Part shown: in pieces, positions 3,537 to 46,560 of the stretch
How positions within the stretch are numbered: the first letter of the stretch is position 1
How the letters are laid out: each line of letters starts with the position of its first letter
Assembly (NCBI GenBank): GCA_030698625.1
Contig: JAUYMS010000027.1
Location: 103,781 to 167,780 of the forward strand
Direction: 5' to 3'
From: Candidatus Omnitrophota bacterium
GTDB taxonomy: Bacteria; Omnitrophota; Omnitrophia; Omnitrophales; Aquincolibacteriaceae
DNA: 64,000 nucleotides
Position numbers and translations under genes: made by a program
Notes under the pieces: model-generated
What the model saw: the letters and a program-made list of their open reading frames with translations, nothing else
The model's database searches: none
What the model was told of the DNA's origin: nothing

Positions 3537-4211
3537 TCAGCTTTTTTTTGGTTCTTGCTGATTTCGGACGTGCTCTTCGAGGCTATCTATTTCCTTCTGT
3601 AGAAAGCGGATGCGGTTCTTCAAGGCCTTCACAGGGTCGGGCAAATCGCCGTGATCGAGGTTTACCTTGGACACTCGACTGCCCTCTTTACGGACAATTA
3701 CGGCCGGTACCCCTACCACGGTGCAGTTATCAGGGACAGAATGAACCACTACGGAGCCTGCCCCAATCTTCACATTGTTTCCAATTTTAATGTTACCAAG
3801 GACTTTTGCACCCGCGCCGACAACCACGTTAGAACCGAGGGTCGGATGCCTCTTACCGCGCGCCGTACCCGTGCCGCCGAGTGTAACACCTTGATACAAC
3901 GTGATGTTTTCACCGGCCTCCGTCGTTTCACCGATGACCACCCCCATACCATGATCAATGAAGAAACCCGGCCCTATGCTGGCCCCGGGATGAATCTCAA
4001 CCCCGGTAAAGAACCGTACCAGCTGGGACATTAGCCGTGGGATAAAGGGGATCCTCAGGCGGTGGAGGAAGTGGTTGATCCGATACCAGAAGACGGCATG
4101 GAACCCGGAATACAGGAGAATGACCTCAAGCACGCCCAGCGGGGTTTGAGCAGCCGGATCGCGTTCAAAGTAAGCCTTAAAGTCTCTATATATGGTATAG
4201 AAGGGATTCAT
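3537..4211 (-). CDS. cysE: serine O-acetyltransferase
   Basis: Short-form CysE: N-terminal [40 protein letters not shown], then hexapeptide-repeat left-handed beta-helix ([26 protein letters not shown]... [26 protein letters not shown]). The track ORF extends to 4412 as an Arg-rich out-of-frame overlap with the giant gene, so I use the ATG at 4209-4211 (224 aa). Confidence 0.8.
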
Positions 4212-4260
4212 GGATTCATTATTTCCTTTAATGGGTGCTTTGTCAATGGAAGGGGCTCTT

Positions 4261-7200
4261 TTACGCCATCGTCGAGATGAGTTTGGAGAGTTCGAATTCG
4301 TAGGCAATTTCCAGGGCCAAGTGGGTAATTTCCAGCGACTGCCTCGTAACCCGGACCGTTCCCTGCATTTGCGCCACCAGTTCCTCAAGGAGTTCAGCTT
4401 TAAGACGCTCATGCCTGTCTTTCAGGGCGAGCAGTGAGGTCATAAAAAGCGCGATAGGCATGCCCGACTCCACGCTCACCTGCGAGAGTAACAAGCGATT
4501 GCTATATTGACCCGATAGCTGCTCCTCAGCAACACCCAAAACCATGGCTAGCCCATGATCCCGCAAATAACTTTCCAGTAAAAACTGAGCTGGCTCAGAA
4601 TCGGCTTCAATGATCTTGGCCACACCGGAGGCCTCCAGCGCCTTGGCAAAGGCTACCCAACGTTTGCGCTCATCGGCGGTAAGCAGAACGCGAATATCGC
4701 CAGTCACTTGTAAGGGATGCGCCGCTCTAAGATCGCGAACCATCTCGACATATTGGCGCAATTCACTACGCGCCTTGACGGAATCCGGCATGCGTACGGC
4801 AAACGCGAAATTGAGTTTGTTCTGCGCGTCAGCTGCAAGATGCGACCTCAGCGCTTCTACGATACGTGATATACCAGCATCAATGAAGCTTCGATGTTCT
4901 CCGTCATAATCAGCATGATCCTGGCGAATCTGCCTTTCGGCGCGAAGCAGGGAAACGATTCCGCCGTCGGAACGGGCAAGCAACCAGAGATTCACGTATC
5001 GCGGCTCGCCCATCGCGGCATAAGCAGCCTTCTCAAAACTGTCTAAGCCGCCTGCAACCAAACCCGCGAGACGTCCTGCCAGATCCACTGGCAAGTCGGC
5101 ACGAGCCGCCAGAGCACCCAATACATCATGAGCCACCTCTCGCAGTTCGGAGCGATGGCGGTTGTCGCGCCCACCGCGACGCCGGCCGCGACCGAGGCGT
5201 TCTTCAATCTGTTTTTCTATTTCGCGGTCTTCGGTTATAAATTTTGCGAACTTTCCTACTGTATAACGAACCCACTCGAGGATCTCAGGGTTCCTTCGCG
5301 CTGAGCCAAAGGTCTCACGGTCCCAAATCCAAATCTCATAATCCTTCGGACGGCCCGTTTTGACATTGCGGCGTTTCCAGCCGTCGATCTTGCGCGCGAG
5401 GAAGCCCAACACCCCTGTTTTCTTCTCGTCGACCACCCATCTCTTCTCCTGACGTTTCCATACATTGGAACGGACCCAAGAATGAATCACCGCCTTATAT
5501 TCGTGACCGATGGAAGAATCGACGGTGGTAACGGTAAAGACGCCTTCGTCAAGCGCTTCGGTGGTTACGAATCTTTCACCGAGCTTCAGGTAGCGGCGCA
5601 AGTCCTGTGCCGCACGCACGTTGCGCCACTTGCGCAAGGACTGAATCTGTTCACCGACCCGGTCGCGCCACACATATTGGTAAAGCGCCTCTGAGCGCAG
5701 CGCGGTCTCGATCTGAGCAATCATGTCATCGTCGAGCTTCGCCTCTCCGTCGATGACCTGCTGTGTCCACTCATGGATCTTAGCCAATTCGTAAAGCGTT
5801 TCGGTGACGATCGCAATCTGGCGGCGGTACGGCGTCACCACTGCGATGTCTTTGGCCTCAAGCTTTTCGTAAAGGAATCGCCACTCGCCTTTATCGCCTT
5901 TCACATAGCGTTTCACTTTTCCGTTCATCAGCTCGTTGACCCAGTGGACCACACGGTTGGCCTCGACAAAATTACCGCCGGTAAACTCCCTACGATCACC
6001 GCGCGGAGCCGCTTTCGTCTCTTCCGGAGCACGGCCGTTGGTGTTATCTTCGATCACCACCCCCGGATCGTCACGTCCCGGAACGAGCTTGCCGTTATAG
6101 AAGTAGTTATTCACATCCACGATCCTATAGCCGGATCTGCGCTGAATATCGAAGAAGTGGAAGCTCGGTCTCGTAAGCTTGAAGATCTCGTCTTGAGGAT
6201 CACCCTCAAAATAGATCTCCAGTGCCCGCTCCAGGAGCGAGATGCGGAAATTGTCGACACGCTTTTGCGCGAAGACTCCTTCGCGGACATTCCGCCGCAA
6301 CGTAACCCGGCCGAAGTCGGCCTTGATCTCTTTAAAATCGGGCCCCAGTTCGCGCAGCGCCTTGTCGATATCGCCCTCGTTGTCGCCATCACTGATCCCA
6401 TAAGCCGGAAGCTGATTGTGGTCACCCACGAGCACCACCATTTCCAGATTGGGCAGATTATCCATCAATTGCAGGGCCTCGGCGAGTGTGGCGCGACTCC
6501 CTTCGTCGATAATCAGGATGCGCACCTCGTCGAGCAAAATCGGGTGGCTCAAAAGATCATGATCCTGTAGAGCGCCGTTAACTGTTCCGACTAGGACAAA
6601 CCCCTTGCCGCCCTTCTTGTCGGGAGGCGTCGCCGCCGCGGTCCGCTGGCGGTCCTTACTCGCCTGCACCGTGGCGCTCAGCTCTTTGAGCTTTTCGGCC
6701 TTCTTTTCCCAGTTGGCGCGAATTTCCGGATTCTCGATCGCCTGGTCACTGTTACCGATGCGCACGAAGGCAACCTCTTTGGGCAAACGTTCGATGGCAT
6801 TGTCCAAAGCTTGATTCTGCTGCGCTGCCACCAGCACATTTTGATTGCTATCGTAGAGCATCTTTACAAGCAGTGAGATGACATGGGTCTTTCCCGTTCC
6901 GCCCGGTCCTTGCACATAAACCACGGGGATTTCAGTATTGAGGAGTTCCACCACGGCCTCGCGCTGCGGCGGATCCAGCTCGTGATCCATCTCTTTTTCA
7001 AGAAGTTCGAGCCAGGCGCGGTTACGATCATTCTGCCGTCTCTTTTCTTCTGCGCCGGCAGCGCTCGGGATGTCGACACGAATTCCCAGGGCCCGGTCCA
7101 CGACCGTCTTTCCAGTCGTCGCAAGCGGGCCCGCATTTCCATCAATCTCAATGACGGACCGGGATGATTCAATAAGTTTCCGAATCATCCCGCGCAGCGT

Positions 7201-10200
7201 TTTGGCCTGCCGCTCCCAACCGTCATTGCGCATACGCGTCATAATGCCGGCACGGCCCATCCGCTCAAGCTTATTGACAAGCTCGTCGCGGCCCTCATGC
7301 GTCTTCGGAAGCTCAAAGACAACTTTTTTCGGCTCTACCGTCTTGACCCGGAACATGAGCGGCAGTTCTTCATCGTCGGTCGGATGACGGAAAGTGAAAC
7401 TATCGCCCGGGAGAATCACTTCTTTTAAATTAGCGGCCACAAGCTGATCCACCAGAAAACCGGTTACCGTAAACGTTGTGCGGTCTACGGTGAGGCGGTC
7501 AAACGGGAATTCGAATTCTACAGGGAGGTCTTTCGCACGGCGGCGCCGATGCTCATTGTCGTCGCGAAGCCTCTGAGCTTCGGCCATCGTTCTCACAATA
7601 AAATAGTCATCGATCATTTTCGGCAGCCACAAGCTTGCTACGGCCTGCGAAATAATCTCCTGCGCTTTCTTGAGGACGGCCTGCGACGGCCCGTTGTGGA
7701 CCGACAGTTCAATGACAAGCCGAGCCATCTGAATCGCTTCCTCGACAAGCACCTCATGCTGGCGCTCCTGCCGTTCATCGGCAGAACCAAGGTCGACAAG
7801 AATCCTCTGCTGACTCTGATTCAGCTGGAAAGCGTTTTCATCAGGTAAATTCGAAACAGCCTCGACGGCCCCATCAAAGGCTGCCTTGGCCTTCGTGAGC
7901 AGGAGGTTGAAGGTCCCTTCGCTTTCTTCCGGATAGGAGACCAGATGCACCGCAGCGCGGTAGGTTTCGCGAAGGTCGCCGTTGACTTCGATGACGGCAC
8001 GCAGTCTTCGGGCATTGCGTTCATGCTCGGCAATTTCGTCTGCCAGGTCTTTGATTTCGTCCTGAGCACGGGCCACACTTACGGCCCACGCATCTTCGAG
8101 GTCGCCGATTGCTTTGTCATACAGCCTGCGCGCGGCACGGAAGCGCTTAGTGCTGAGATTCCCTTTCACCTGACTCATGAGGTGTTGATAGGTCTTAATG
8201 CTGGTAATAGCGGCGCTCACTTTCTTGTCTTCACCGAATTTCAGATTTTTCTCCAGAACCTCAATCGAGCCTGTAATGGATTCGCGTTTGCCGGACGCGA
8301 TACGAATCGCGGTTCCCCGGATGAGATTGCTATAGAACTTATATCTCTGGGCATTAGGATCCCCGGGATTTAGTTCTTCGAGCTCTTTGGCCAGCTGGGC
8401 GATAGTCTCGTACTCATTCGGTGAGAGGGAGTCCCCGTATCCCTTGCGGATGCGTTGGAAGAGGTCTGCGGCTTGCGCGATTTTTGCTTTGAGCGCATTC
8501 AGCCGACCGCGTACTTCATCAAATTCTTTCGCCTTCGCTCCCTCGATACCGGCCCTCACGGAATTTTCGGCCCCTTTATAATCACCGGCGACGAGCAAGC
8601 GTTTTGCATCCTCGAGAAAATCCACCGGCCGCACCTTGCTCTGCAATGTCGGCAAAATTTCTTTCTGGATGCGCCGGCTAGCCTGGCCGCTTAAGCCCCG
8701 TTCAATCCTCTGCGCCAAGTTATAAACGGTGGCTGCGTGTTCCCGGTCGATGTTGTCTGCCAGCCACTTAAGCAAGATGTAGCTGGCATCGCCCTTCCAC
8801 TCTCCTTCGTTCTTCAGAAAATCTTCGAAATAGGCCGTAAGCCGTTGGCGGGTTAGCTCCGGGGCCATGAGTTCCAAGCGATATAGGATTTCTTTCAACT
8901 GTGCGCCGGTAAGCCTCTCGAACCCGGGGCCGGTCAAAAGATCCAAGTGACTTTCGATCAGGAGATTCTGAAAATCTTCGGGAATCGTCAGAAAGACTCG
9001 GGCAATATTTTTATTCGTAAGAAAGTTATTTGCCTTCGCCTGCTTCTTTTTCCCTTTCGTTTCCTGCGGCAGTGTCTTTTTCAGTTCCGCGCGGCCTTCA
9101 TCGAAGCTGCCTTGTGACCAATACACTATCGTAAAGGCCGCCTCGACAGAAAAATTGGAATCGATCTCGAGCTCGGAAAAGCGTTCGCGCGCGCGTGTTA
9201 AGGTCTTGAGCGCCTCTGCCGGGTTACCGGCGCTTAAGGCTGCGACGGCGCGGTGGAATTCGGCATTCGCATGCATCGCCGCCTTCCGCTTCTCATCCCC
9301 TTCATGTCCGGCGGCTGTCTGATAGATACCGAGCAACTCCTGCGCTTTCGCTCGGGCACGCTCCGGCAGATCCCCCTCGCCTTCGGCAAAGCTCGCTAAA
9401 ATTTCCATAAGCCCGGCGCCCCGCAGGACAACCATATCGCTTACTCCTTCGTAATCAAAATCAAGCATCTCGGTCGTTGCCTTTAGAAACGTCTCATCAT
9501 CCCTGACGGCCCAGGCAATTGTGGCTATGGACAACAGAAAGAATTTATTGCTCTGATAAAATTCGTCGCCCATGGCAAGCCTCAAGAACTTCGAGATTGT
9601 CCCTCTTAAGCCTGCCAGCTCCGAATCCCCCAGGTGAAGCGTATGCAGCCAGCTCCCGCTATTGAAGGCCTCAAACATCATTTCGTAGAGCTCGGCATTA
9701 GCCGCATGCCCTTCTTCGCGATGGCGCTCGAGGTACGCGAGGCCCCGGCCGAAGCGCTGGCCCCACAACTGAATCTCACTTTTCGCGTCCTCAATCTTTC
9801 CGTCACGCAGTTTTCCGTACACAGTCCGGTTCAAATGCTGCAAGGATGATGCCGCCAATACGTCCCCTTGATCCTGACCCATCCGGGGCATATGCGTCGC
9901 CACCGCTCTGAGGATCTTCTTATTGACCTCCAACTCGATGTCTTCTTCGTCGGCAATTGCCGCGAGTTCGGCCAAATTTTGGTAGAAGAAGAATATCAAC
10001 AGGCTCTCTTCGTGTTCGGAGAGCAACTGACGATACTGTTTGATGCCGCCTCTGAGGAAGCTCGTGAGGTTCCTCCGGAATGTTTGATAACGCTCACCCC
10101 CTTCGCCTTTTAGATATCTGCTCTCGTTGATAAGGAGTTTCAAGAAACGCGTATAAAAGGCAATGTCTAGAATGGCATTGATGCCTGTCCGTTGGCTAAA

Positions 10201-13200
10201 ACGTTCCCGGATGCGTTCAAAGAGGCCAAACATGGCCCCCGGATCGTAACCATGCTTCATAAGATGCGCATCGGCAAGGTCGGCAAACTTTTCAACATAC
10301 CGCGTCTTTTGATCGTCGGCAACATGACCGCTATTTGTTCCCCGGCCTGCGATCATGAAATAATTCAGAAAGCCGTCAATATCATCGGCCGTCTTATCGA
10401 TACTGGCTGTCAAGTAGTCCGCGGTTTGCTCCGCAAAAACGGCATCGCGCCCCTTGTTATCAAGGGTCAAGCGTTCAACCAGTTTGCGGGCTAAGATCGG
10501 ACTCCGAACGTTTAGGGCATTGAGTACGGCATGTATGTTTTCCCAATGGTTTGAAGGCCGCTGTCCCACTCTGTATAATCCTTCGACAATCGCAAGCGTG
10601 GCGCTCGTGATATAGCCGCCGGTTCTGATTTCACGTTCCAGAAGATACGTAACCATTTCCTCCATAGCCCCGGCATCGTCCGGCCATTGCTTGAAATCAT
10701 CGAAGATCTCACGGGAAAGTCTTGCGGCAGCTCCGAGCTGATGCATCGGTCGGCTTAGAAAAACGCTTTTGCGCGCGCCGGGAAGAACCTGCAATGTCCT
10801 TGCTTGGTAGAGCAATTTAAAGAAGAGCTTGAGGGCCTCCTTCGCTTCGTCGGGACGGCCCCTTAGAAGATGTACGGTCGCGTGGTCATACGGCAGAACC
10901 AGCCTCATTTCGCCCAATGCTTTCGGAGCCAGATCGCGATATATCCGGTCGGCCGTTTCAAGGTCCCCCGAGTAAAAAGCGGCGACAGCTTCGAAGTAAT
11001 CGTGCCAAGGCTCGAAGTATGCGTCCGCGTAGGCGCCCGTCGCCTTGCGGGCCTCGATCATTTTATGACCCGCCGCCACTGCCTGACGAAACGCCGCCTG
11101 CGCGCCTTCCATGTCCGGTTCCGTATCATCGGCCGGCGGATTGTTCAGAATAAACCCGCGCAGGAAGAGCAAGTGCGTCAGAAAGGATTGGGAAATGGCA
11201 TGGTTCGGATCCAGATCCAGCGCGAGACGGATAGATTCAAGCGCCTGATCAATGTGTGTGATGTCTTCCTTATAGAGCATATGAAAACCGGCAAGCTCGG
11301 AGAGCACATCCACCCTCATGCTCTGCACCTGGTCTTCGGGAATCCCCTCTTTGCCGACCTCATCTAAGAGCATTAAGGCCTTTTCCAGGGCAAGGAAGGC
11401 CATGGCGATTTCAGTCGGCTTGAGCGGGTCGAAGTTTAAGCGCAACTGCTCGGCCAACCGGGCGGCCATCTCGATCTGTTCCCAATTCGTCATATCTGTT
11501 TTCGACTGCACATAAACTTCCAGGAGCATACGCTCGGAATCGAGCATGTCTGCCGCAACCAGCAGATTGCTCAGGCGCCGGTAATTCCCGTAATCCAAGT
11601 CGCTGGAGTAGTGATAATCCACAACGGTTGGCAGGATCTGCTCTATGGTCTCACGGGGCGGCATGCCATCCCCATAAGAATTCATAAGAACAAAGGCCGC
11701 TGACTGACGCATAACAACCATCAGATCCATACCGGTTTTGAGATGTCTCAATTCTTGCGTGATCTGGTCTTCGCGATCTTGCAGCTTTCTTTCCTTTCTT
11801 ACGGATCCCGTCTTCGTCCTCGCGGTAACTTCATACTCCTCCTGCAGACGGATCATTTTGCGTGCCGCCGCCCCTCTTGCCTTATCAGTCTTATTCAGAA
11901 GGATATGGGCAAGCTCGATCGGATCCCCCTGCGCAGTCTTGAGACGTTCCACCTCGGCATCACTCTCACCCAAGATCTCTTCGACAACCACGCCGGCACG
12001 CATGAAATCTGTTTCCGCCCGCTCGCCGTGCTGTTCGCCAAGCTCTGTGCGCAATTCCGACCGCGCAGCGGGTTCAATCTCCAGAATCTGAAAATGCCAG
12101 CCGTCGATAACCGGAATACCGATGCCCCAGCCTTCGCGGTGCAGGGCCTCGCCCTTAAGGGTATCCGGTTCCGTCAAATATTTCTTCTGCAGATGATCAT
12201 AGACGCGGTAACGGGCATCTCCCCTCTCGATTCCGAGGAATCCCACATCGGTGAGGCGCACCCAGACTTTCTTATCGGGTTCGGTATGGTGCCGCGATCC
12301 GAATGAAATGGGTACAATCAGGCGGCGGCCTTCGTGGGTTCGCGCAAACACAATGACGGTCTCACGGCTGACTCGATGAAATTCAATTTCACCGTGGTCA
12401 AAAAGATCGCGGAGCGCCGTATCGCTGATAACATCATTTAGGCGGGCAAAGACTTCCTGATTCCAGTCTTTCATATAACGCAGCAGGTCGGGCGAGGCGA
12501 TGGCAATAAGGGCCATGACGGGCGGTATCCCAACCGGTCGCTTATCTTGATCGCTAAAGTGCTCCCGGGCTGCATTCGGTTTTAGCTCCGCCACGGTTTT
12601 CAGAACATTCTTGAGTTCCTCTGGTTTTTCCCGCAGGGTCTTGATTTCATTGATCAGCAACAGAGCCGGCGCCTGGTTGCCTCTGACAAATTCCCCGCGA
12701 ATCGCCGCACTTAGATAACGAATTAGTTTTTCTTCTTTGCGCTCGACAAAGCGCAATGCCTGAACCGTACGAACGTTCACCGGCAACCCCTGGGCAAAAA
12801 GATCCCCCACCGTATGCCGTCCATATTTGGCTTTCGTGTTCGCGTTCTCAACGTCAAAAACAGACGCCCTATCCCCAACGGCGTCCTCACCGAGCAGGGT
12901 GGTAAAACCGCGCACACCGTAAACCTCGGTCCCGCCGAGCGCCTCTTCGGTGGACTCATTGACCGCGACGAGAACCTTCTCGCCGTTAACGTGAACGGTA
13001 TAGGCCTTTACGTTCAACGTTGTCGCGTCGAGGAGCTCTCCATTTTTATGGAGGTACCGAATGAGATACTCCCGCAAACGAGCATCTTGGAAAAGCGTCG
13101 ATATTTCCTTGCCCTCCTTGATGGAACTCTCGAGTATGCTCCAAGAGAGGCGGATGGCAAGCAGGTTTATCACCTCAAAGGCATGCAGGTTTAATTCGAC

Positions 13201-16200
13201 TTTTTTGTTAAGCGACTTCTCAGATGCCGATGCGGTAGCCAGGCGTTTGATCTCATCTTTTACGTCCTTGAGACTCGGGTCATCGTCTTTGAGAAGATAA
13301 TTCAGGATGAAGTGGAAAATGTCACCTTCAGGGTGTAATTCGGGATTACTGGTATGATAGCTCATCGCCCACAGCGCCTCGACGCCGCGCATACGCAGTC
13401 GGCGAAAGCTGTCGAGAAAGCCCAGCAGGCCCGGGACGCCTTTTTCTACGAGAATCGTATCTTTCTTAGCGAGATCGGGACGGCGCGTCCAGCCAAAACC
13501 GTCGTCCTTGGCGAGGGTTAGAAGATTCGTCGCGGTAGTGCTCGGAATTTTCAGATTCGAGAAAATTTTATTCTGCTCATTGCGCCGGCTTATGGCTTCC
13601 TGCCAGAGAAAGGCGTGGGCCCGCGTCTGTCCGCGTTCGATATCGACTTTCCAGGATGATGCCACGGCCTGATACTGTGCTTCGCGCCGGCTAACAGGAT
13701 CGCTGTAGCGTGTCTTTAGGCCCTTGAGTGCGGCACCCAGGCTCGCGGCCATGGGCCGCCGTCCGCCGCCATCGACCCCGCTCATTTCAGAATTCGAATA
13801 TTCCACCAGGAACCCATTAGTGATTTCCCACACCCCGCTCTCCAGGTTCTGAACGAGTTCATCATGTGAAACATTTTCGGCGAAGATATCGATCTCACGG
13901 CCTGATGACTTCTCGATAATCGTAAAGAGTTCCGGCATGGCACCGCCCCAGACACCGATCAGTTGAGCGAAATTCGCCAAACCTTTCATCATGCTCGTGG
14001 CCGATGCCTCGAGAAACTCATCGGAGAGCATCACCACACCGGCCATGGCCTGAAAAATAACCGGCGCGGCGAATATACTGTAATTCTCCACCGTCGCAAT
14101 ACGGTGCTCGAGACCCAATTCCCGAATTAACTCTTTGATGCGATCGAATTTCCACTGGGCTCCGGAATCAAAGACGCGCCCGCCGATGACGACCCGAGCC
14201 GAGTCACGTTTAAATGCCGCAAGCGCTTCGGGGTCCCGCGCGAGCGATTCCAGGAGCTCGATCCACTTTTCCGGCCCCTTATACGCCACTTGGCGGCGAA
14301 TGTTCGAGACGATCGGGTCTTCAATAAGGATATCCCTGAGAACACCCACGTCTCCTGATAAATTCGCCCATTTCGTTTCGTCTAGAAGGGCGGCGTGAAT
14401 CGCTCCCATGAATGACTGAATCAGCATCGCTCCGTCTTCCGCTTTGTGCCCGGTGCGTTTCGTATATTCAGCGATGGCGTCCTCAAACCATAACGAATTT
14501 CCCTGCTCCACGGCCATCCACAGCAGAAATTGTCCGACATAACCCGCATTGACGTATTCGCTTCGCCTCTGAAATTCATCGCGAAGCGCTGCAGATGTGT
14601 TTAAAATCTTAAAAAATTCGCGGTCGCCGTCACTATCCACCATGCCAAGGCTCGTTTTGAATTGCTCAATTAGTTCACGCTTTTCGGGCGATTGCCACTG
14701 GTCGAGGAGCACGCCGTTGGTGCTGCGGACACCGTTGCTGTTGTACCCGGTCAGCTTGTGCATATGTCCTGAAAAGATTCCGTCATTTCGAAGCACGGGT
14801 GTGTGCTCATAGAGGCCGACACCGGTGATCATATCGGAGTACATGGCGACCGCATCGGTGATGTTGATCTTGTCGCCGTTCACGATATACGGTCTCATCC
14901 ATTCAGCAAACCCCAACATCTCATAGGAAGAGGCATTAGGACTATAGAGACCGGGGCGAAAAACGGTATGGTTAATATGGTGATGCATGGCGTTGGGGAA
15001 CATCGGAGTCGGCATGCTGGCGAACACCTCGTTATCCACAAAGAGGATATCCTGTTGGACAAGCTTTCGGCTCTGCAATTCCTTAAGCAGCATCTGGCTC
15101 GCCTGCGCATAGGCTCCCATGTGAACATCCCGCCACAGAGTCGTACCCGTCTCGTCAGCATCAGGATAGACCTCATCGAAAACACTGACCGTCCGCCCGT
15201 CCCCATTCACAAAAAAGATGTCAAGATAATAGCTGGGAGTTTTCCCGTACTTGGTTTGCGTCTCGTAGACATGAACCGTCAGTTCGCGGTCGACGACACT
15301 TCGCGCCTTCCCGCGGGCCTTATCTCGAAAGTCATCACCGATTTTCAGTTTCATCTTAAATTCGATGCCCGTATCATCCAGGACTTCCTTCAGGTAATCT
15401 CCGAGATTCTTCGCGCCCGCGAGCACTTCGAGCGGCAAAGCACCGTTTAGGCCCTCCGATCCCCGCTCCCCTCGGACAATTCCCTTGATCTTATTATTGT
15501 AAAGAGGGTGAATGGCAATGATGTCGGTACCGTTCTTGCGCCAGCCGTCGATCAGATCCGGCATAAGGGCCCCCAAACCGCCGGTGAAGTTGAGCTGTGA
15601 GACGAAATTTGCGATCTTTTTGCCGAAGCGGTTAGCAAGTTTTGCCAAAATATCACGGTGCAGGCCCGCTTCGAACTGCCGCGTAACCACGGTTACATTC
15701 TGAACATCTGGCGTGTTCTCGCTAACCCATGTGTGCCGCAGCTCAGACCGGTGTGTTTCCGCCGGAGTCTCCTCAGAGCCGACAACTTGATCAAGATGAT
15801 TGAGAGCAAAATCAATAGTCGGCAAATACCATACCGGTTCGCCTCTCCCGTTTAACGCATTGAGTGCCGCTTGAAAGGAATATCGCGCGAATACGATTGC
15901 CTGCTTTTCGGCTTGCGATCTGGCCTTAAACCGCAACTTGGGTCTAAACTCAACGAAGGCCTCCATCCCTACTTTACGTGCCGCCCAAGCAATACCCCTT
16001 TCCAGCCAACCGCCTGAAGCTCCACGCATGGGCGTAACAATCGCCCATATCGCTTGGTAATGCTCTTTGAGAACTTTGGTGCCGGCGGGAACCTGCATAT
16101 GACTATCGGCAATGAATGCTCTGAAGGTTTTCGTGACGCCCATCTCCCGCATGATTTCCTTAACCGAGCGCAAATCAAAAGTGCCCGTCATAAGCAAAAC

Positions 16201-19200
16201 GCCCCACAGCTGCTTACGCAAGAAGTCACGCAGCTCATGATCACGCGTCGTGATGATGTGGCGGCCGGCATAATCGAGGATTTCAATTTTCCCCTTTTTC
16301 AGACGATACTTCCAGCCGTCGAGGACTAATGTGGGATTGACGGCTTCAATGTATCGTTCGATCAGCTCCGAAGTAACTTGCGGCGCCTTAACACCTGCGG
16401 CGAGATCACGATTTTTCGGCAAATCAAGAATAGAGGTGGCGCGGCTAAGCGTGTCGAAAGTTGCATATCGGCGAAGAAAGCTTTGTGCTTTGCCTAAGTC
16501 GATCTCTGCGAAGGAGAGAGATACCTTGATCTCTACGGCTTCGTCTACTCGATTCAACTGCTCCGGTCTTGCTTGCGTCTGCGCAAATGGCTTGAAGAGT
16601 TCTTCCTCAGGCTCCAAAGCGACAAAAATATAAGCACGCTTAAAAGTGCCGGCGGGAAGCGCTTCCCCGGCGGCCGACACGGCACTTATTCTCCGGGAGA
16701 CCGCGCCCGGCAAATCCTGACGGATCAGCTGAAAGCGATCCTTGGTCATGGGTTCAAGGCCCATCCCCAACGTCTCTCTTTGTTGCCGAAGAGTCTCTGA
16801 AGGCGCACCGCCTCTGAATCCAACCAACGCATGCGGCAGAAACTCATTGGCCGCGAGTTCTGCCGGGGTCGCTGTCCAAATACCCACTTCATCCAAATTG
16901 TCTTGTTCGCTAAGGATTTCGTCTTCTGCTACGGCCATGACTTCTTGGATCGTGCCTTCACCAAAAGTAACCATCTGGGCCAGGTTCAGTTTTTCACGGG
17001 CGGCCTTCTGCTCTTCCTCCCGCCTGGAAGCGAGTGCCTCATTTCTGCGCGCGTCATCAGCCTTCCGTTCTTGCTCTGCGACATACTCCGCAATCGCGCT
17101 CATTTGGACGCCGAGCAGATCTTCCCGGCCCCGGATTCGCCTCTGCCGCTCTTGGATTTCCTTAAGAACGCTGACGCGTTCGGCTTCGCTGAAATGCCGT
17201 TCGTCGACCCAGGCCGAGCCGTCGGGGGCGATTTCATGGATCTCGACAATCAATGCCCGCAGTTCGTCATCGGAAATTCCGTAGGGCTGGTTAATCAGGA
17301 CCAAGTGCCCGTCCTCGATGGCGCTTACCAGAGACGCGACTTTATCGCTGTCCGTCCAGGCGCTCGGATCCTCGGTCATATCTCTAACATTCTGACGAAT
17401 ATTCTGAACGGTTTTCCCCGAACGGAATTTCAAATGAATCTCACTCACTCGGGCATTCGTGCTGTAGGATTCCGGTTGCGCCAAGATCACAACCATGACC
17501 GTTCCACCGTTGCGCAGCTCGACATCTTTGACTTTGTCTTCTAGAAAGTAGTCCGCTATTTGCCCTACCAGGTCTTCTTCCGGCTGAACGCGCTCGAATC
17601 CCAGACTTTGGAGTGCACTACCCTGTTCCTCGGTCGCGGGAATCACGCGCAGCGTAAAGCTTCCTTCAGCCGGTGCTTCCATTTCCTTCAATTGATTGAT
17701 CACGTCCTTATCACCGGCCATCACGCGCTCCGTGATCTCCGGGGTCTGTGACTTCAACTTCGCTGCTGTCTCATTCGGAACGAGGATGACGGGGCGCACT
17801 TCGGAGCTGTCATAGGCGCTGCGTCCCAATTCATAGTGCGCCGCGGAGTTCAATTCCGAGAACTGGTTTATAAGAAGGGGGTACGCATCGATGTTAGACT
17901 CCGGGGTCACTCCAGAGTAGACGCCCGGGTCCTTACCCTCGCTGTCATTACCGCGCGTCAGGAAAAAGCCCGCGTTTCTATCGAGAAGGCTCAGCACCTG
18001 CTGAAAGTGAAACGAATCCCCAATGCTCGTCTCGTTGATCAAGACTTGGTAGCCCTGCTTGATTTCTTCGGGGTAATCCCGGTCAGCATCAAAACCAAAG
18101 TAAGCAATAACCGTCCTCTCGATACCGTTATGCCGGAAAGTCGCGACGTATCTCTGCTGCTTGCGCTCCTGTCTCCTTCTCGCAAATTCAATTTCAGTTT
18201 CAGGATCGACCACAGATCCGAGCTGCTCTGTAACCTGCGCCTTGAAGTCACCAAAACTCAGAGGTTCCCGGTGCGTACCGATAAGGGTTTCAAAATCCGT
18301 CTTCATCAGGGTCCCGAGGATATCTAATTTCCCGGCTTCATCCCCGGCGCCGAGCCCCATGGAGTAAACAACCGGTTTATCAACGAGTGAGGTAATCAGC
18401 CGGGCCGTGTTTCGTGCCAAGGTCAGCTTCTTGCGCGCCACCTTTTCGCCCTGCCCGAACCCGTCGAAGAATTTCAGGACATGTTCTCTTGATGCCTTGA
18501 TGCCTGTGACAGGGAGTTCCAGATCCAGATCGATATCGCTACCCGGCAGTTCACTGCCGAGATCCCGGAACGGAATGTAGTGCGCGGCGCTTTCTTTCGC
18601 GCGGTTATAGGACTCTGCCGCTCTAAGCTCTGAACGCTTTAGATCCGTTTTTTCCAGAACGAGATATCGAAGGCTCCCGTCCGCTTTGCGCAGCGGATCG
18701 CCGCTTGCATCCTTTGGCACGAAGAGGAAACGCAGTACTTTTACATTGGTCACCTCGTCCAGCTTGGCCATTCCCGTCGTAAGGTCTGTCAGATCTTCGT
18801 CGGCAAGATAAACTAATAAGTCATTTTGCTTTGCGCCTACCGTGCGGAAGACCTCGGCAAATACCGCGGCGCGGCGGGCATCGCCGTATCCGGTTATTGC
18901 TTGGTTTATCGTAATTAGCGGCCGGTATCTTACAAAGCTCAGGTCGCCCTGGATCTCCAACCCCGACGGCACTGAAATCGGCTTTGAGAGGATGTCCTCC
19001 AAGGTTCGGCCTTCGTCCAACTGGTCAAACACGGCAATAAAATAATTCAGCATATTCCTTTCCTTCCGCACAATCTCGGCAAGGGTATCGCGATACAATC
19101 TGCGGTCATCCTTGTTGCCGATGACCCGCGCCAAGACCTCTTCGAGGTCTTCGAGCACGTCAGGGCTATACTCGTGATAATGCGGGTTCTGGATTTCGAG

Positions 19201-22200: not shown

Positions 22201-25200
22201 CTCCAATACGAGAATCAAGCGCTCGAAGTCCTCGGCAAGCAGCGTCGCATCCGCGCCCTCAAGACGTTTCTTAAGAAAGTCTATGACGGCTTCATTATTC
22301 CCGAGATCCAGCAGCGACTTTCCTGCATCCGGGATACCGGTGGCACCGAAATCGCGGGCGGGAATAAACCAACTGCGGCCGTCATCGACCGCGCCAAGCA
22401 GAATCTGCACATTGACGTTCGGGAGTGACTTCAAAACCTCCGTGAACTGGCTGGCCCCGCGGCCGCCGCGGAGAACCACGATGTTTAGGGGATCGGCAGG
22501 ACTGTGCTGCCGGAGGAAGGCCTCATAATCAAATACGGCATTAAAAATGGTCTCGACCTGCTTGGCATCAAGTCCGAGCGGCGGCGGGTTGCCGCGCAGC
22601 AGATCGAGTCTCGCTTGAAGCAATCGCTTAACTTCGTCCGGGTTCTTCAAAACAGCGTTGTCCTTAATTGTTTGATACAGAAAATCGGGACTTTCGGTCA
22701 GCCCACTCAACGCGGCGTCTCCGACTCGCGCGGTCACCCCCTCGCCTGCGAGCTCCTGAACCAGGCTTGCAATATCTCTGAGCGTTTGCGCCTGCTGCTC
22801 CAGAATCCCCGGCGGGGCATAGAGCTTCGTATAGATCGCGGTTTCCTCACTGGCTCCCAGTCGATCAATTCTCATGACCGGGTCCTCAGACCGAAAGGCA
22901 TTGCGCTCATGCAGGCGAAATTGACCGCCGGTTGAAATGATAATGCCGCCCGGCTTCAAGTAAGACATGAGGTTCTGTGCAATGACACGCGCCTGCCGGT
23001 CTGAAATAGATTTGGGATGAGCCACATCAGAAATAAAGATGATATCCATTTTTTCATCTTCGTTTTGTAATTCCGGTAACGGTTTCTTAAGATCCCAGAG
23101 ATAGCCGTTCACATTGGCTGTGATACCCTTGGTCTTCAGGTTCTGATCCATGGTGCGGAAGTTCTTTGGAAGCGCGTCAACAAGATGAAAATCGCCCACG
23201 GGATACTCGGAAAATTCTTCGACCTCCGCACCGAAGATTCCTGGGCCTGCGATCATGACGCGCGCACCCTCGAGATCGGTCTTGAATGATAAATTCGGGC
23301 CAACGCCTTGATGCGCACGCGCATAGTCCATAAAAGCCGAGAAGTCCCGGTTAATGAAGGTCCATCCCAACCCGTCGGAAGTGGCCGAAATGCCGTCACG
23401 CTCATCGTCGGCGGTGTCTTCGGGCTGAAGATCTAGAAGCGCTTGATCGACCTTCCGCATGCGAATCACCTCTAAATCTGAAAACGGCGCGTCTTCCGTT
23501 TGTATTTCAGAGCGCCGGGCTAGCGGGATAAAGTGTTCCCGGTAAACGGCGTCGGCAGCCTGACGGACGCTCTCGCGGAACTGATTAAAGTCTCTTAGTT
23601 GATCATTGATATACTTCGCCCACTCCAGCTTGTCGGCGGTGGCCGTTCCCATAAGTTTTTCACTCAGCAACAATGCCATTTCGCGGCCGATGACGATATC
23701 CGCACTTTCTCCCGGCACTTCCCCATCTGTTCCCAGAGCCTTGGCAATTTTCAACAAAAGCATAAAGGGCGCATTGTGCTGCTTCCGCAGGGCATTCAGC
23801 GAGGCCTCAACCTCAAGGATCATCTCGTTAGCAATCGCTTGCTTTTCTTCGGTTTTCGTGGCCGAGTCTGCGAGCCGCGTTCTGAGAGTCGAATCATCCT
23901 GCAGCAGCCGGCTTACCTGCTCTCTGCCGAAATCGGGTTTTCCGGCCACAAAGACACTTCCTGTGACGTCGCGCATAAAACGCTTCGCGTCAACATGACT
24001 TCTTTCCTCGAGCATCATGTCCTCGAGCAATACTTTCTTCAAATCCTTCTGATCGCCCTCTCCAAAAGATTCAACCCGCACTCGCATCGTGACATAGTCC
24101 AGTTTGTCCGGTTGTTGACTGAAGGGAAGCATGCGGAATCCCGGACGCCCGGAGTCTCGCTTCATCTTCTGATAGTGGGCGATTATCTCCGCCAGGAACT
24201 CCACTCCGTCTTCGTACAAAGTAATGAAGTCTTCGGTTGCCGATGCGACAACCACTTGATCGACCTTGGTTTTCAGCCTCACAAGGTAAACCGGGACCTC
24301 ATGGCCGGCCTCAGTTGTTACTTGGCGCGTTTCTGCGTCGTTGAAGCGGAGAATGCGGTAAGGTTCCTCGGTGGTGCCCGCTTGTGCAACGATTAGCCCA
24401 TGCGGAAAAAACGTCCTCTGAAAATGCGGGGCAATGTTTGCGGCTTCGACAGCGCCCATCGTGCTGTCCGGACTGATGTCGCTGATATCCGAGAATTTTA
24501 GACCCGGTTCCAAGACACCCAGCGTCTCATCAAACCACGTTATGAATTCCCCTGCCGGCAACTCGCCTGTCTTGAGTCTTTCAGCAAGTGGATCCTGGGT
24601 CGGGAGAAAGACTTCGGAAATCCATTTTTCGATATCGAACTGCACGTGAGAAGGGTCCAGAAGCCGGGCTTCTTTAGCGCCCTGAAGGTATTCGGTGATC
24701 GGGGCAATATGCTGCCGTGAAAGACGCGCCAACCTAAAGACATCTGCGACAGCCCCCTGATTAATATCGCCCGCTCCGTCCAAGAGGGCGATGGCTCTAC
24801 CGCGCTGCGCCTCGTTAACGCGTTTGTTAATCTTTCTGCCCAACCCCGCGATGAGCCCATCCAGAGCTTCTCGTTCTGTTCTCAGCTCCGAGCGGGCACC
24901 TGTGTCCGGCGCCGGGCGCATGAGATCGATTGCGCTAAAAGACGGCTTCGGGGGAAAAACCACTCCGGGGTTGAAGCTCAGCCTGTGCTGACCCATGAAT
25001 CTCTGGAGCCTGTCCGACATCTCTTGACGACCCTCCTGCGCAGCGGGATCCACCTGTCCGTAAAGCGCAAAGATCAACTCGTCCAAGAAATCTTTGGTGG
25101 CTTGATCCGGTGTGAGCACCACGCCTAAGTACTCGCGTTCTATAAACCGGAGGCCCGCCTCGTCTCTCATCTCAATCCCATAGACACTGCGGACGATGCG

Positions 25201-34200: not shown

Positions 34201-37200
34201 TTCATCCAAATCTGCTCGCGCGCGCCCGGTGTAGACGTAGTAATAATTGTGGCTGGAATTGCCGTCGCTATCCTCCGATGTCGACTCCCAAACCTCGAGG
34301 TTGCCGGCCGCATCTTCAAGATGCTCATAGAGACTGTCGCCTGACTGCAGGAATCGAATCCCGCCCCACTCGTTTGCCGCTTGACCCGCAGGAGTGGCTT
34401 TCACGGCAGCGCCGGCACCATAAAGCTGATACCCCTTGTGCAGGAAGTTGACCCCTGCCGCGACTGTAACCGCCAAAGTTCCGAACACGATAAGATTCGC
34501 GACCGTCTCGCGCACGCCCGTCCGCAGCTCGGAACGGCCTATCGGTTTGTCCAGCAATGCAACGTAAAGCGTATTCGGTTCCGGGTAAAACGTGCGCTGT
34601 TGCGTCCCCACCACGGTGATCTCATAACCCATAACCTTGGGATCGATAAATGGCGGGAACCAAGTGGTCCCGCGAACGACTTTAACACCTTGGGAGGCAA
34701 GATGATCGAAGACGGCTTTGCGCATTTTGATCCCCAGTTCCTGTCCGCGGTAAGCGGGGTGAACCAGCACATCAAGGACCATCGCTTCTTTACCGGGACC
34801 CTGAAAAGGGATAACTTCAAGAGTGGAAAGGACGGGTTGCTCAAAGCTCTCGAATCCGATCATGAAGTCGTATGTCTTACTCCATGACTCGTGAACCGGG
34901 AGCGTCATGATGTATCCGATCACGGGGTTTTCGGGATCGTTCGTGTCTCTTGCGACATAACCAAATCCGTCAGCAAAAATGTCCTCTTCCAACAGCCCGA
35001 GATTAACCTCTTTCATCAACTCAACGGCCTCCCTCTCCTCGGGAGTCGCTTCGCCGGCCGGCAAGAGCGCCCTTCGAACTGCGCCATCCTTCGGATCCGG
35101 TGTCTTATTGCGATTTTTTTTCATTTCGACATCAAAGAAAAGAGGATCCAGGGCGCCCGATCGCAACAGCTCAGAAAAGATCTGAGTATCGACCGCCTCA
35201 ACGGCAATGCCTTCCGGCACATCAAAGGCGCGCAGCTCAGACCGGGATGCGCCAAGTTCGTCCGCTTCACGCAACCATCCGCGCAGTTCCGGTGCCCAAT
35301 TCACGGAAATCTTTGCCGGCGCTACAAAGTCCGCCAACCCCTCGGCTCTAACCGCCTCCCGCGGTTCGGACCTCGCGGAGTTAAAGATGATGATGGTATC
35401 CGGATGCGCATCTTTGATCGGCTTGACAAGATCTTTTCCTTCGAGCTCTCCTTCGTCGTTCTCTCCCAAATCATTGTCCAGAAGAACCAGATCGAATGTT
35501 TCTCCTGCCCGCACGAGATCAAGGGCTTCTTCTCCCCACTTTACGATCGTGATGTCCTCGCTCCTGAGATCCCAGAATTTGCGAATGATGTCCGCGTAGT
35601 AATCGTAGTAATTAACAAGGTCTTCTCCGTTCTCCACAATCAAAACTTTTCGCGGTTGCCACTTCGGCGTATACCCACGCAACTCAGACCGGTTCACATT
35701 CTGATACTGATCTTTGTCATAGACGGTGAGAATACCTTCTGCCATACCGTACACAAACGCGGCCTTTTGATCTTTTTTGCCGGCAGCGTCTTGATCGCTC
35801 AGCGAAGGTTTGTCGGGGTAGTTTGACCAATCGGGATGACTATGCGCCTGCAAGGCGAGGCTGTCTTCCGGAAGGGGTAGATCATATTGCGGATCGGCGA
35901 TGCCGAGCCGCAGTTCTACGGCGTTCTTAAATACCCCGTACTTCTCCCCCACTTCCGCGGAGGCCTGCCTGGTGTCGGGATCTTCAACGCCGCCGCTGAC
36001 TTCACGGGCAGGGTCCAAAGCATAAGAAGCTTCCGGAATAAAGTCGATGATCCCAATGCGATCCCCCTCAGTGCGGCCGACAAATTTGCCGCGTCTTTCA
36101 AAAATGAGACTGCCCCGAAACCACTGGTCCGCTTTATTCAGGGCATCCACTCGCATGACATACTTTTGCCCGCTAAAATCCCACTCAATCACTTCCTCCG
36201 TTGTTGCTGACCACCCGTGATAGAAGTCGTAGGCGTCCTTCATGGTAGCGGATACTCGCACCCACCTATTGCCCCGCAACCATTCTCCGCTCGCATCTTG
36301 ATAGGGGGTATTGAAGGCAGTCTCGGCAAGAATCAGCTCTCTTCGCGTGAGGATCTCTTCCAAAAGGGCATTGATAAATTCAAGGTCCCCAAGCGCTCCA
36401 CCCTTTTCCTCGATCGTCTTCCGGACAAACGTATTAACATTAGCATTCACGGGCATCGGCTTGAGAGAACTTGCCTCCAGCTCCGATATCAGATTGGATA
36501 GGACAACGTATAGCGCCGAGTCCCCTGCGGGAGTCTTAAAAAACGCCTCGGCTTCGATCGCTTGAATGATCGCATTGATTGTCTCTTCCGTTGAGCCGCG
36601 CAGCTCCGAGCGCTGCGGCTCGTCGAGAGTCTCGATGAGGCTATCGCCTACCAGCACACTCCCGCTCCAGCGGTTAACGAGCGGGACGGCGGTGCCGTGC
36701 ACGGTGGTCGGCTGCTTTACGAGGTTCATAATATTTTCAGGGCTCAGACGATTTCCATCACGCAGCACTCTAAGGCCTTCCATGAAATTCCTGACATGGC
36801 CGCTCCATTCCTCGTTAGCGCTCGCGTACTCCGCCGGATTGGTCATTTGTTCCGCAGCGCCGTCGATGAAACGGGTATATTGCGCCGCTTCTTCGATGCG
36901 GCCCTCGGCGGCAAGTTTACGGATGAGGGCGTCACGCCAGGCCTTGAGTTGATTATGTCTCCGCCCCGAAAGCTTGTCGGTGACAGCCCGGTTGAAAGAC
37001 TCATAGAGATTAATCTTGCCGTCCTTGATCTTGAAATGGTCGCTCCACGAGACCTTGCCCTGCATATAGTCGAGGTAAGCACTCTTGTCGGGCATCTCAC
37101 CCATATGCGGATCGACGACGACATAGGACACGTCCTGCTCACGCAAGAGTTGGGTCAGCCTTTCCGTATGAAACCCTCCCGTGATCATGGCCGCCTTATC

Positions 37201-45189: not shown

Positions 45190-45279
45190 TGGCGGAGAGG
45201 AAGGGATTCGAACCCTTGAGACCTTGCAGTCTACTCGCTTTCCAAGCGAGCGCACTCGACCGGGCTATGCGACCTCTCC
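45190..45279 (-). tRNA. tRNA-Ser (anticodon GGA)
   Basis: Reverse-complement GGAGAGGTCGCATAGCCCGGTCGAGTGCGCTCGCTTGGAAAGCGAG...AAGGGTTCGAATCCCTTCCTCTCCGCCA. A 7-bp acceptor stem, a 3-bp class-II D-stem, the anticodon loop TTGGAAA, a long variable arm, and T-loop TTCGAAT. CCA is encoded. Confidence 0.85.
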
Positions 45280-45304
45280 GTATAACTTTCAAAAAAGCTT
45301 ACCG

Positions 45305-46003
45305 CTAATCTTTTAAAGCCGCTGCCAGCTCTCTATAGATCTCCGGCAACTTTCCGTTCCACTGGTTAAAATAAACCAGGTCCTCGAGCGGAAGCCGACT
45401 CCGCCACCCCGCAGCTTCCAATTCAGGGATCTCCGGGAACTCGCTCACATACCCAAGGCACAGGTACGCCACAATGACATGTTTGGGAGGGATATTTAAT
45501 ATCTCGTGAAGATCTTGGCGGTTGAGAATGCTCACCCACCCCACCCCGATGTTTTCGGCGCGCGCCGCAAGCCAGAGATTCTGAACTGCGCACACCGTCG
45601 AGTACACATCCGTTTCACGCATACTGTTGCGCCCGATGACTTCTCCGGGAATCCGGTTCCGATCGCACGTGACGCATATATTGAGCGGCGACTCCAGGAT
45701 TCCTTCGAGCTTATAAGAAAGATATTTCTCGCGGCGTTCCGCATCAAATTTTTCTGCGGCAGCTTCGCGCTCCCTGAGAAAGGACTCCCGCACGCGTGCC
45801 TTAACACCGACATCGTCAACAACAATAAAACTCCACGGCTGCATGTATCCAACGGACCCGGCGTGATGCGCCGCCTTTAAAATTCGCCCAAGCATCGCAA
45901 CCGGGATGGGTTCCGCCGTGAAGTGTTTTCTTATATCGCGGCGGCCGAAGATCGTTTTGTAAACCGCGTCTCTTTCTGCTGCTGTGATGTCGGGTTGACC
46001 CAT
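45305..46003 (-). CDS. nitroreductase-family protein, BluB (5,6-dimethylbenzimidazole synthase)-like
   Basis: 232 aa. RRDIRKHFTAEPIPVAMLGRILKAAHHAGSVGYMQPWSFIVV matches the BluB/nitroreductase N-terminal block. Confidence 0.6.
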   Translation of the reverse strand: MGQPDITAAERDAVYKTIFGRRDIRKHFTAEPIPVAMLGRILKAAHHAGSVGYMQPWSFIVVDDVGVKARVRESFLREREAAAEKFDAERREKYLSYKLEGILESPLNICVTCDRNRIPGEVIGRNSMRETDVYSTVCAVQNLWLAARAENIGVGWVSILNRQDLHEILNIPPKHVIVAYLCLGYVSEFPEIPELEAAGWRSRLPLEDLVYFNQWNGKLPEIYRELAAALKD

Positions 46004-46488: not shown

Positions 46489-46560
46489 AAGACAACAATG
46501 ACTCGTGGCTTATCGCCACGAGCCACGACGTGTGTTCAGCTCTTTATAAAAATATAGGTT

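Follow-up and report, generated by a model that had tools for sequence, protein, structure and literature searches.

Giant genes of Omnitrophota reach ~147,000 codons and are a recognised puzzle. Archaeovorin/dockerin-type giants of this phylum have been described, with C39 or S8 peptidases proposed for their processing, the cleavage points unknown, and the choice between a single chain and a cleaved one stated as an important question (West-Roberts et al., 2023). A survey that covered 5,761 proteins with lengths from 10 kaa upwards has defined 'multi-enzyme metabolic clusters' as class 1 and does not mention cleavage (preprint 10.64898/2026.06.07.730766). Both works mention neither a junction motif, nor JAB/JAMM, nor cysteine depletion. 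The stretch of DNA analysed in this work (the window) covers 64,000 nucleotides of a Candidatus Omnitrophota bacterium (assembly GCA_030698625.1, contig JAUYMS010000027.1, positions 103,781 to 167,780 of the forward strand). The window holds a single giant open reading frame (ORF) at 4261..38631 on the minus strand that encodes a protein of 11,456 aa, in which the pentapeptide RSELR recurs 16 times. RSELR is a peptide-level junction motif that is conserved as a class in relatives and that bounds modules behaving as evolutionary units. The giant protein is probably cut at this motif into separate proteins as viral polyproteins are. Class 1 of the preprint comprises Omnitrophota proteins of at least 10 kaa in which many Pfam families occur and none dominates, and the giant protein fits it with its length, at least seven distinct domain types, and its phylum. 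It also resembles the described Omnitrophota giants in having many Pfam families, transmembrane helices, and a C-terminal helicase.

Viral polyproteins are similar to the giant protein in several respects. Both consist of unrelated units in one ORF, both have a junction motif that ends in Arg and is followed by a small residue, and both include a protease as a unit, which is predicted here. Both also have membrane-targeting segments after some junctions. The flavivirus protease NS2B-NS3 cuts (K/R)R|(G/S/A). The giant protein differs from viral polyproteins in being encoded by a cellular chromosomal gene, in having a JAMM/MPN+ candidate instead of a serine or cysteine protease, and in carrying bacterial signalling and metabolic cargo.

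MARTX toxins are cut after Leu in loosely defined linkers, whereas the giant protein has an exact pentapeptide. MARTX and large clostridial toxins (PMC3153235) are also very large bacterial proteins with effector modules and an internal protease domain that releases them, as is proposed here, and the MARTX effector RRSP has the same fold as the N-terminal module of the giant protein. However, Pfam identifies neither RTX repeats nor the InsP6-activated cysteine protease domain CPD of the toxins in the giant protein, which has no Cys after residue 24. A cysteine protease is thus impossible in the Cys-free mature chain.

The polyvalent proteins of phages and conjugative elements likewise bring disparate enzymes together in one chain, from which an embedded peptidase has been proposed to free the parts, and an explicit analogy with viral polyproteins has been drawn for them (Iyer et al., 2017; PMC5512222). 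They differ in that the peptidase is another one (a zincin-like MPTase), JAB (RadC) domains are treated as nucleases, and no site is defined. A polyvalent protein of a mobile element was rejected as an identity for the giant protein, given the origin-proximal chromosomal housekeeping setting, the absence of HExxH, and the absence of relatives in IMG/VR.

In the ubiquitin tail LRLRGG, at which JAMM enzymes cut, L-R likewise precedes small residues. The JAMM/MPN+ enzymes of ubiquitin and ubiquitin-like processing (the Caldiarchaeum Rpn11 homologue 6fju/6fnn, BilC 8tyx, and Cap3 9ild) share the fold and the catalytic signature with module 2 of the giant protein, and they trim linear precursors or conjugates at a defined C-terminal tail. 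Module 2 differs from them by a signature spacer of 10 residues instead of 7, by an extra N-terminal subdomain of ~75 aa, and by being missed by the Pfam JAB models.

RSELR variant peptides in the literature yielded nothing relevant, and no paper links "polyprotein" in this meaning to Omnitrophota. As a word, RSELR is used in the literature for PL7 alginate lyases only, where it belongs to a conserved jelly-roll catalytic domain that also contains the QIH and YFKAG motifs. This identity was rejected; Pfam identifies no PL7 domain in the giant protein, and the 16 copies have unrelated flanks. Polyproteins that carry their own protease are known, and what is new here is the setting, the predicted protease family, and a defined site code.

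RSELR as a module boundary

All 16 RSELR copies lie in the frame of the giant ORF, and the other five frames of the window have none. Only 0.031 copies are expected from the residue composition, and the commonest 5-mer in 300 shuffles reached only 2-4 copies. One-mismatch variants occur at chance level (2 observed, 1.9 expected). Both are RSEPR, and they were rejected as sites, being chance matches within folded domains. No other R.E[LVAIM]R occurs in the giant protein. The 17 neighbouring ORFs (~7,500 aa) have zero RSELR copies, and the motif is likewise absent from the genes neighbouring the relatives P0001 and P0005 on their contigs.

The codons of the motif vary. The Arg is encoded by CGC, CGG, CGT, CGA, and AGA, the Ser by TCC, TCG, TCT, TCA, and AGT, and the Leu by CTG, TTG, CTC, CTT, and TTA. 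The nucleotides beyond the 15 nt are unconserved, and the wobble positions carry little information. However, Ser is TCN in 15 of the 16 copies when AGY makes up 45% of the Ser codons of the gene (P about 1e-3), and Leu is YTG in 13 of the 16, which is more uniform than the gene-wide usage. Ser is also TCN in 10 of the 11 copies of two relatives (P0001 and P0005; L082 and L083), which gives 25 of 27 together with the window protein, while AGY makes up 20-45% of the Ser codons in these three genes. The TCN bias may arise because S/A alternation requires TCN-GCN changes. The bias of both residues fits S/A toggling or shared linker ancestry better than a signal at the nucleotide level. Weak biases are also seen in the flanks, with Ala at -1 in 6 of the 16 copies and G/A/T at +1 in 10. 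Met does not follow any of the 16 sites, so the modules are not producible by internal translation starts. The 17 segments between sites measure 128-2,303 aa.

These results can be compared with the initial annotation of the window. Its count of 16 copies is exact, its unequal segments of about 130 to 2300 aa agree with the measured ones, and its conclusion that selection acts on the peptide and not on a DNA repeat is borne out by the varied codons and the unconserved flanking nucleotides. The background check that it had proposed also came out in its favour, the motif being absent from neighbouring genes in the three genomes where this can be seen. The sites that it had located are all real, with positions offset by 0-11 nt from the exact coordinates given below. 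Its codon variety holds for Arg, Ser, and Leu, except that AGC is unused and that CTC and CGA are also used. Its statement that the flanking residues are not conserved is to be refined by the weak biases at -1 and +1. Its expectation of 0.004 copies assumes equal residue frequencies and gives way to the composition-based value.

The sites and modules of the giant protein are listed as follows.

4261..38631, minus strand, giant ORF, predicted polyprotein precursor with 17 modules and 16 RSELR copies, Cys-free after residue 24
38512..38631, minus strand, putative N-terminal signal peptide or anchor, residues 1-40, with the sole two Cys of the protein (C20, C24)
37051..38439, minus strand, conserved N-terminal core module, residues ~65-527, EreA/ChaN/TraB/TIKI-like fold, second candidate hydrolase
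36598..36612, minus strand, RSELR site 1, aa 674-678, motif match
35677..36339, minus strand, JAMM/MPN+ (JAB) module 2, residues 765-985, C-terminal end at RSELR site 2
36097..36099, minus strand, Glu845, JAMM general-base position, invariant in the alignment
35794..35844, minus strand, JAMM zinc-site signature H930-S-H932-x10-S943-x2-D946, from the alignment
35677..35691, minus strand, RSELR site 2, aa 981-985, ~10 residues past the last JAB strand in a low-confidence model tail
35230..35676, minus strand, module 3, receiver (REC), 149 aa, by Pfam; homologues in P0009 and P0010 are motif-bracketed likewise
35230..35244, minus strand, RSELR site 3, aa 1130-1134, motif match
34522..35229, minus strand, module 4, GNAT acetyltransferase, 236 aa, by Pfam
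34522..34536, minus strand, RSELR site 4, aa 1366-1370, hydrophobic helix begins 6 residues on
33709..33723, minus strand, RSELR site 5, aa 1637-1641, motif match
32695..33708, minus strand, module 6, histidine phosphatase (His_Phos_1), 338 aa, by Pfam
32695..32709, minus strand, RSELR site 6, aa 1975-1979, motif match
31522..31536, minus strand, RSELR site 7, aa 2366-2370, signal-peptide-like segment 7 residues on
29122..31521, minus strand, module 8, 800 aa, without known domain, tandem paralogue of module 9
29122..29136, minus strand, RSELR site 8, aa 3166-3170, signal-peptide-like segment 8 residues on
26734..29121, minus strand, module 9, 796 aa, 65% identity to module 8
26734..26748, minus strand, RSELR site 9, aa 3962-3966, motif match
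24880..24894, minus strand, RSELR site 10, aa 4580-4584, motif match
20308..24879, minus strand, module 11, 1,524 aa, CofD-like and NUDIX, by Pfam
20308..20322, minus strand, RSELR site 11, aa 6104-6108, motif match
18622..18636, minus strand, RSELR site 12, aa 6666-6670, motif match
15736..15750, minus strand, RSELR site 13, aa 7628-7632, motif match
12049..12063, minus strand, RSELR site 14, aa 8857-8861, motif match
5140..12048, minus strand, module 15, 2,303 aa, TPR repeats and superfamily-1 helicase (AAA_11/AAA_12), by Pfam
5140..5154, minus strand, RSELR site 15, aa 11160-11164, motif match
4756..4770, minus strand, RSELR site 16, aa 11288-11292, motif match, sole copy with the AGT Ser codon

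The motif coincides with the borders of the modules. Modules 8 and 9 are a tandem duplication with 65% identity in which the repeat unit runs exactly from RSELR to RSELR. When the REC module is aligned to P0009 and P0010, both ends of the alignment fall within the motif in each of the three proteins. The Pfam domains fall inside the segments, and REC begins 8 aa past the motif, as in a free-standing response regulator. The single ORF thus holds unrelated protein-sized units, namely REC, GNAT, His_Phos_1, CofD with NUDIX, TPR with superfamily-1 helicase, JAB, and TIKI-like modules. Modules 5, 8, and 9 open with a basic stretch and a hydrophobic helix that resemble the signal peptide at the N-terminus of the giant protein, 6-8 residues past the motif. 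Three of the eight internal hydrophobic helices begin at this distance (P about 3e-5, or 1e-3 when paralogues are counted once). The remaining segments have neither a reliable domain nor a protease at the thresholds used (Pfam E <= 1, NCBIfam E <= 0.1, and PDB sequence searches with modules 8, 13, and 14).

To identify relatives, 1.84 billion representative proteins were searched exhaustively by HMMER with residues 640-1700 as the query, and 29 matches were returned. The members with a named organism are all a "hypothetical protein" of Candidatus Omnitrophota. The motif versions of the relatives, with the copies expected by chance, are listed as follows.

P0007, 6,005 aa, RAEVR in 15 copies, 0.12 expected
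P0010, 2,618 aa, 12 motif copies, 0.06 expected
P0005, 4,495 aa, 9 copies (RSEVR, RSEAR), 0.08 expected
P0001, 3,275 aa, RSELR in 4 copies and RAELR in 4 copies, plus K/M/Q variants, 0.05 expected
P0009, 1,854 aa, 5 copies, 0.04 expected
P0002, 6,273 aa, R-x-E-[LM]-R

The closer relatives are long proteins with their own recurrent versions, and therefore the junction rule of the family is R-x-E-hydrophobic-R followed by a small residue. The codons vary between the motif copies of the relatives too. Across 72 pooled sites, positions -3 to -1 are enriched in P/S/A/G, and the residue at +1 is small in 40 of them (P = 4e-8). These preferences would be typical of an exposed linker and of a protease with a P1' preference. 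Only the JAB module and the N-terminal module are found family-wide, and all other modules are variable cargo. Pfam scans identified no families in P0001 and P0009, and only HEAT and TPR repeats in P0005. The loss of the motif at the corresponding boundaries of homologues had been named beforehand as a result that would speak against a role in processing; within the available sample, the motif is kept at those boundaries.

The other searches covered different collections. A metagenome scan with four JAB sequences returned only the contigs of P0001 and P0005, and a scan of viral contigs (IMG/VR) returned no relatives. A word-index protein search with modules 8-9 and the JAB alignment returned no match, though the HMMER matches sit in the same collection. 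This search misses known members, so its negative is not evidence of absence.

Motif pairs 33-56 aa apart were also observed in two relatives, at aa 934-971 and 3229-3266 of P0001 and at aa 421-466, 1210-1252, 1498-1542, and 1865-1925 of P0010. Small peptides would be released from these pairs if both sites were cut. The window protein has no segment under 128 aa.

Candidate enzymes within the chain

Module 2 is a predicted JAMM/MPN+ zinc metalloprotease with an intact catalytic signature. The alignment of 23 homologues shows no change at E845, H930, S943, or D946, and at least 90% of the sequences keep S931 and H932. The JAMM signature E...HxH...S..D is present, with the HxH-to-S spacer of 10 residues instead of 7. 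The AlphaFold model of module 2 has a predicted local distance difference test score (pLDDT) of 93.2 and a predicted template modelling score (pTM) of 0.90, and the top 50 Foldseek matches are all JAMM enzymes, including Cap3, Rpn11, CSN5, BRCC36, and BilC. The predicted fold of module 2 is the MPN/JAB alpha-beta fold. The curated models, among them JAB, Prok-JAB, and RadC of Pfam, do not identify the module (Pfam none at E <= 1, NCBIfam none at E <= 0.1), and the family profile matches nothing among the PDB sequences at E <= 10. Judged by its sequence, module 2 is a divergent and undescribed JAB family.

A conserved distance of 9-12 residues separates the motif from the end of the last JAB strand in P0005, P0006, P0007, and the window protein, within a model tail that has a pLDDT of 57. 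This placement would suit cleavage in cis. The JAB module of P0005 is bracketed by the motif on both sides. The giant protein has neither an HExxH nor a serine-protease signature.

The N-terminal module (residues ~65-527) follows the putative signal peptide and is common to the window protein and P0002, P0005, P0007, P0009, P0013, and P0023. H99, E127, and G485-G-F-H488 are invariant in the seven sequences, and H99, E127, and H488 would be candidate equivalents of the catalytic His/Glu residues of EreC, TIKI, and RRSP. The module has an EreA/ChaN/TraB/TIKI-like fold. The Pfam model of the ChaN/Tiki superfamily gives a weak match in one of the seven members, with E = 0.0035, which is below the cut-off. 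The conservation of this module together with the weak match makes it a second possible hydrolase.

The initial annotation had proposed a search of the rest of the genome for a co-occurring protease. A predicted protease was found within the giant protein itself instead. The types that had been suggested (subtilisin/kexin-like, rhomboid, and trypsin-like) are not seen, and the candidates are the JAMM/MPN+ module and the TIKI/EreA-like hydrolase.

Proposed self-processing and its rival explanations

We infer that the giant protein is a self-processing polyprotein in which RSELR is the protease recognition site and the embedded JAB module is the likeliest enzyme, and we hold this reading, with its cleavage, bond, and enzyme, at about even confidence. 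The 17 modules, each sized and organised like an ordinary protein, would be translated as one chain of 11,456 aa joined by the invariant RSELR. A dedicated endopeptidase would recognise RSELR and cut the precursor during or after translation. The JAB module could act in cis on the site at its own C-terminal end and in trans on all others. Since Arg precedes a small residue, R|(A/T/G/S) is the candidate scissile bond. The released modules 5, 8, and 9 would start with their own signal-peptide-like sequence, and other released modules would be cytoplasmic-type enzymes (REC, GNAT, histidine phosphatase, CofD/NUDIX, and helicase). The initial annotation had already proposed a site-specific protease signal that cuts the precursor into modules, and this reading is favoured through the boundary placement, the homologues, and the embedded predicted protease. 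Its sortase-type variant finds no support; the sites are internal and there is no LPXTG-like C-terminal sorting signal. A sortase substrate was also rejected on the grounds that the 16 internal sites are Arg-rich and that only three are followed by a hydrophobic segment, which is placed like a signal peptide.

Several results weigh against self-processing by the JAB module. The evidence for cleavage is indirect and comes from the motif and the modules. To our knowledge, characterised JAMM enzymes cut after the C-terminal Gly-Gly of ubiquitin-like proteins and not at R-x-E-hydrophobic-R. Neither a ubiquitin-like domain nor Gly-Gly was noticed before the sites, although no dedicated test for them was made. 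P0010 has 12 motifs and neither core hydrolase, and P0009 has 5 motifs and no JAB module, so both would depend on an enzyme that is encoded elsewhere and acts in trans. The site directly after JAB is degenerate in P0001 and P0019. A search of the JAB alignment for columns that track Leu versus Val at motif position 4 yielded 2 columns, at rank 6 of 35 splits, which is uninformative. Across the family, 3 of 72 motif copies are followed by a signal-peptide-like start, which is not significantly more than the 1.5 expected (P = 0.17). The distant JAB-bearing Omnitrophota proteins P0011, P0013, P0018, P0023, and P0026 are without R-x-E-hydrophobic-R. Because a signal peptide stands at the very N-terminus, export of the still uncut chain would be hard to reconcile with its topology. 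The comparative sample is also small, since 6-8 of the 29 HMMER matches bear the motif.

The motif might be cut by an enzyme other than JAB, such as the N-terminal EreA/ChaN/TraB/TIKI-like hydrolase, an unlinked bacterial protease, or a prey or host protease, while JAB serves otherwise, for example as a deubiquitinase-like or Cap3-like effector. We consider this unlikely overall. Both TIKI and RRSP act as site-specific endopeptidases, the N-terminal module alone shares universal conservation with JAB, its H99, E127, and H488 are invariant, and P0009 combines motifs and this module with no JAB. However, the N-terminal module lies behind a signal peptide, which would place its activity beyond the cytoplasm and far from most of the chain. 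It is separated from the first motif by 45 to 290 aa, compared with 9-12 aa after JAB, and the two do not always occur together, as P0001 has motifs and JAB without the N-terminal module whereas P0013 and P0023 have the N-terminal module without the motif. Many members of the superfamily are esterases or haem binders, Pfam gives a single weak match, below the cut-off, among the seven members, and no other protease signature is present in the protein or among the annotated genes of the window. The motif might also be uncut and act, as the initial annotation had considered for docking, as a docking or spacer peptide between the modules of one giant chain, recognised by a chaperone, a secretion or targeting factor, or an own module, or setting the pace of folding. 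Peptide-level conservation at the boundaries is equally expected under such a role, cleavage has been derived indirectly, and the published work on Omnitrophota giants leaves action as a single chain open. Yet a docking or spacer role leaves unexplained that both family-wide modules have hydrolase folds, one of them with an intact protease signature, that signal-peptide-like sequences lie 6-8 aa past three sites, that small residues are preferred at +1, and that P0001 and P0010 have closely spaced motif pairs. We find this role improbable to much the same degree.

The remaining explanations are far less probable. The motif might be the incidental product of a nucleic-acid feature, such as a recombination or cassette scar, an RNA site at which the transcript is cut, or a recoding or pausing signal. 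The uniformity of the Ser (TCN) and Leu (YTG) codons would be in line with this, and transcript cleavage has been raised as a possibility by West-Roberts et al. (2023). However, the synonymous positions are free, nothing beyond the 15 nt is conserved, no Rfam family lies within the giant gene, and the relatives keep the peptide class with different codons. Cut transcripts would also be untranslatable, since no start codon follows the sites. A nucleic-acid feature is therefore very improbable in our judgement. Chance or a compositional artefact has in its favour that R, S, E, and L are common in the giant protein. Its probability is negligible given 16 copies against 0.031 expected, a shuffle maximum of 4, no copies in the neighbouring genes, and replication in six independent proteins.

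The self-processing polyprotein offers a concrete cleavage map, in which 16 cuts and 17 products are predicted, together with a candidate enzyme whose catalytic residues can be named and a simple sequence rule for the screening of other giants. The stated question of one chain versus a cleaved one thus becomes directly testable. Trypsin cuts after Arg, so tryptic proteomics is blind to native ...RSELR| termini. If confirmed, the giant protein would be a rare case of cellular polyprotein processing at such scale, and the targets of JAMM proteases would then include linear junctions in polyproteins besides ubiquitin-like tails. The specific pair of pentapeptide and protease could possibly be used as a tool. 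It is a tentative and somewhat doubtful generalisation that a clade of Omnitrophota uses virus-style polyprotein expression for cellular genes, in which enzymes, regulators, and membrane proteins are made in sets as a single chain and a previously unrecognised JAMM/MPN+ family invisible to Pfam releases them by reading a lineage-tuned R-x-E-hydrophobic-R code. If this is so, the giant genes of the phylum would be equivalents of operons and not giant machines, with product maps that are readable from sequence.

Chain ends, composition, and chromosomal setting

Each of the seven proteins with the N-terminal module keeps a Cys within the hydrophobic stretch of its putative signal peptide, and the context is [I/F]-L-S-C in three, which is lipobox-like. 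Module 1 might be a lipid-anchored lipoprotein. The 11,432 residues past residue 24 of the window protein have no Cys, compared with ~102 expected from the 17 neighbouring ORFs (0.9% Cys). The relatives are similarly depleted, with 0 Cys in 3,275 residues of P0001, 1 in 6,005 of P0007, and 1 in 2,618 of P0010, and their neighbouring genes are normal.

The C-termini were compared among the window protein (4264-4300, minus strand), P0001, P0005, P0007, P0009, P0010, P0013, and P0028. They are alike and follow ...[S/T]-x-[S/A/M/H]-Ala (ISTMA, LSVSA, LSYSA, VEMSA, AVHA, LTAA, LQAA, and LTSA). Over their final 50 aa, the window protein and P0010 share ~33% identity. The shared C-terminus may be a C-terminal signal or degron. 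A conserved C-terminal module is weakly suggested by the match between the window protein and P0010, with E = 0.006 in a tiny database.

Other stretches were noticed by eye in the distant JAB-bearing proteins. P0026 and P0013 have in common 'TPASL[LF]G' ahead of membrane segments. P0011 has a Tat-like 'MSRRELLLG' directly after JAB. P0018 has an intein-like 'CVTGDT...THNFVAGH' stretch. Other junction codes may be in use in P0011, P0013, P0018, P0023, and P0026.

The giant gene is found in an origin-proximal chromosomal setting, ~20 kb from dnaA and among housekeeping neighbours. The window holds dnaA, dnaN, gyrB, a GAF histidine kinase gene, gyrA, serS, and four tRNAs, and ychF lies directly upstream of the giant gene. 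The YchF protein has 77% identity to that of a Candidatus Omnitrophota metagenome-assembled genome from groundwater, and every other match has at most 61%. That groundwater genome, the closest by YchF, has no giant gene at the syntenic position. A contig scan of species-representative genomes with modules 8/9 returned no match; the source genome lies outside that set. The public Logan assembly SRR13727534 (locus L001) independently matches the first 1,421 aa, including four RSELR copies.

Three features of the neighbouring genes were also observed. The GAF-domain histidine kinase gene (window 51855-53186, minus strand) lies between gyrB and gyrA in the dnaA-dnaN-gyrB-gyrA origin cluster. Three tRNA-Ser genes (GGA, GCT, and TGA) and tRNA-Arg(ACG) are clustered at window 45190-48092 (minus strand) beside serS and a tadA-like deaminase gene. 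The mechanical call of a hexapeptide-repeat transferase ORF at window 3537-4412 (minus strand) runs, in a different frame, ~150 nt into the 3' end of the giant gene, and its true start is probably further downstream.

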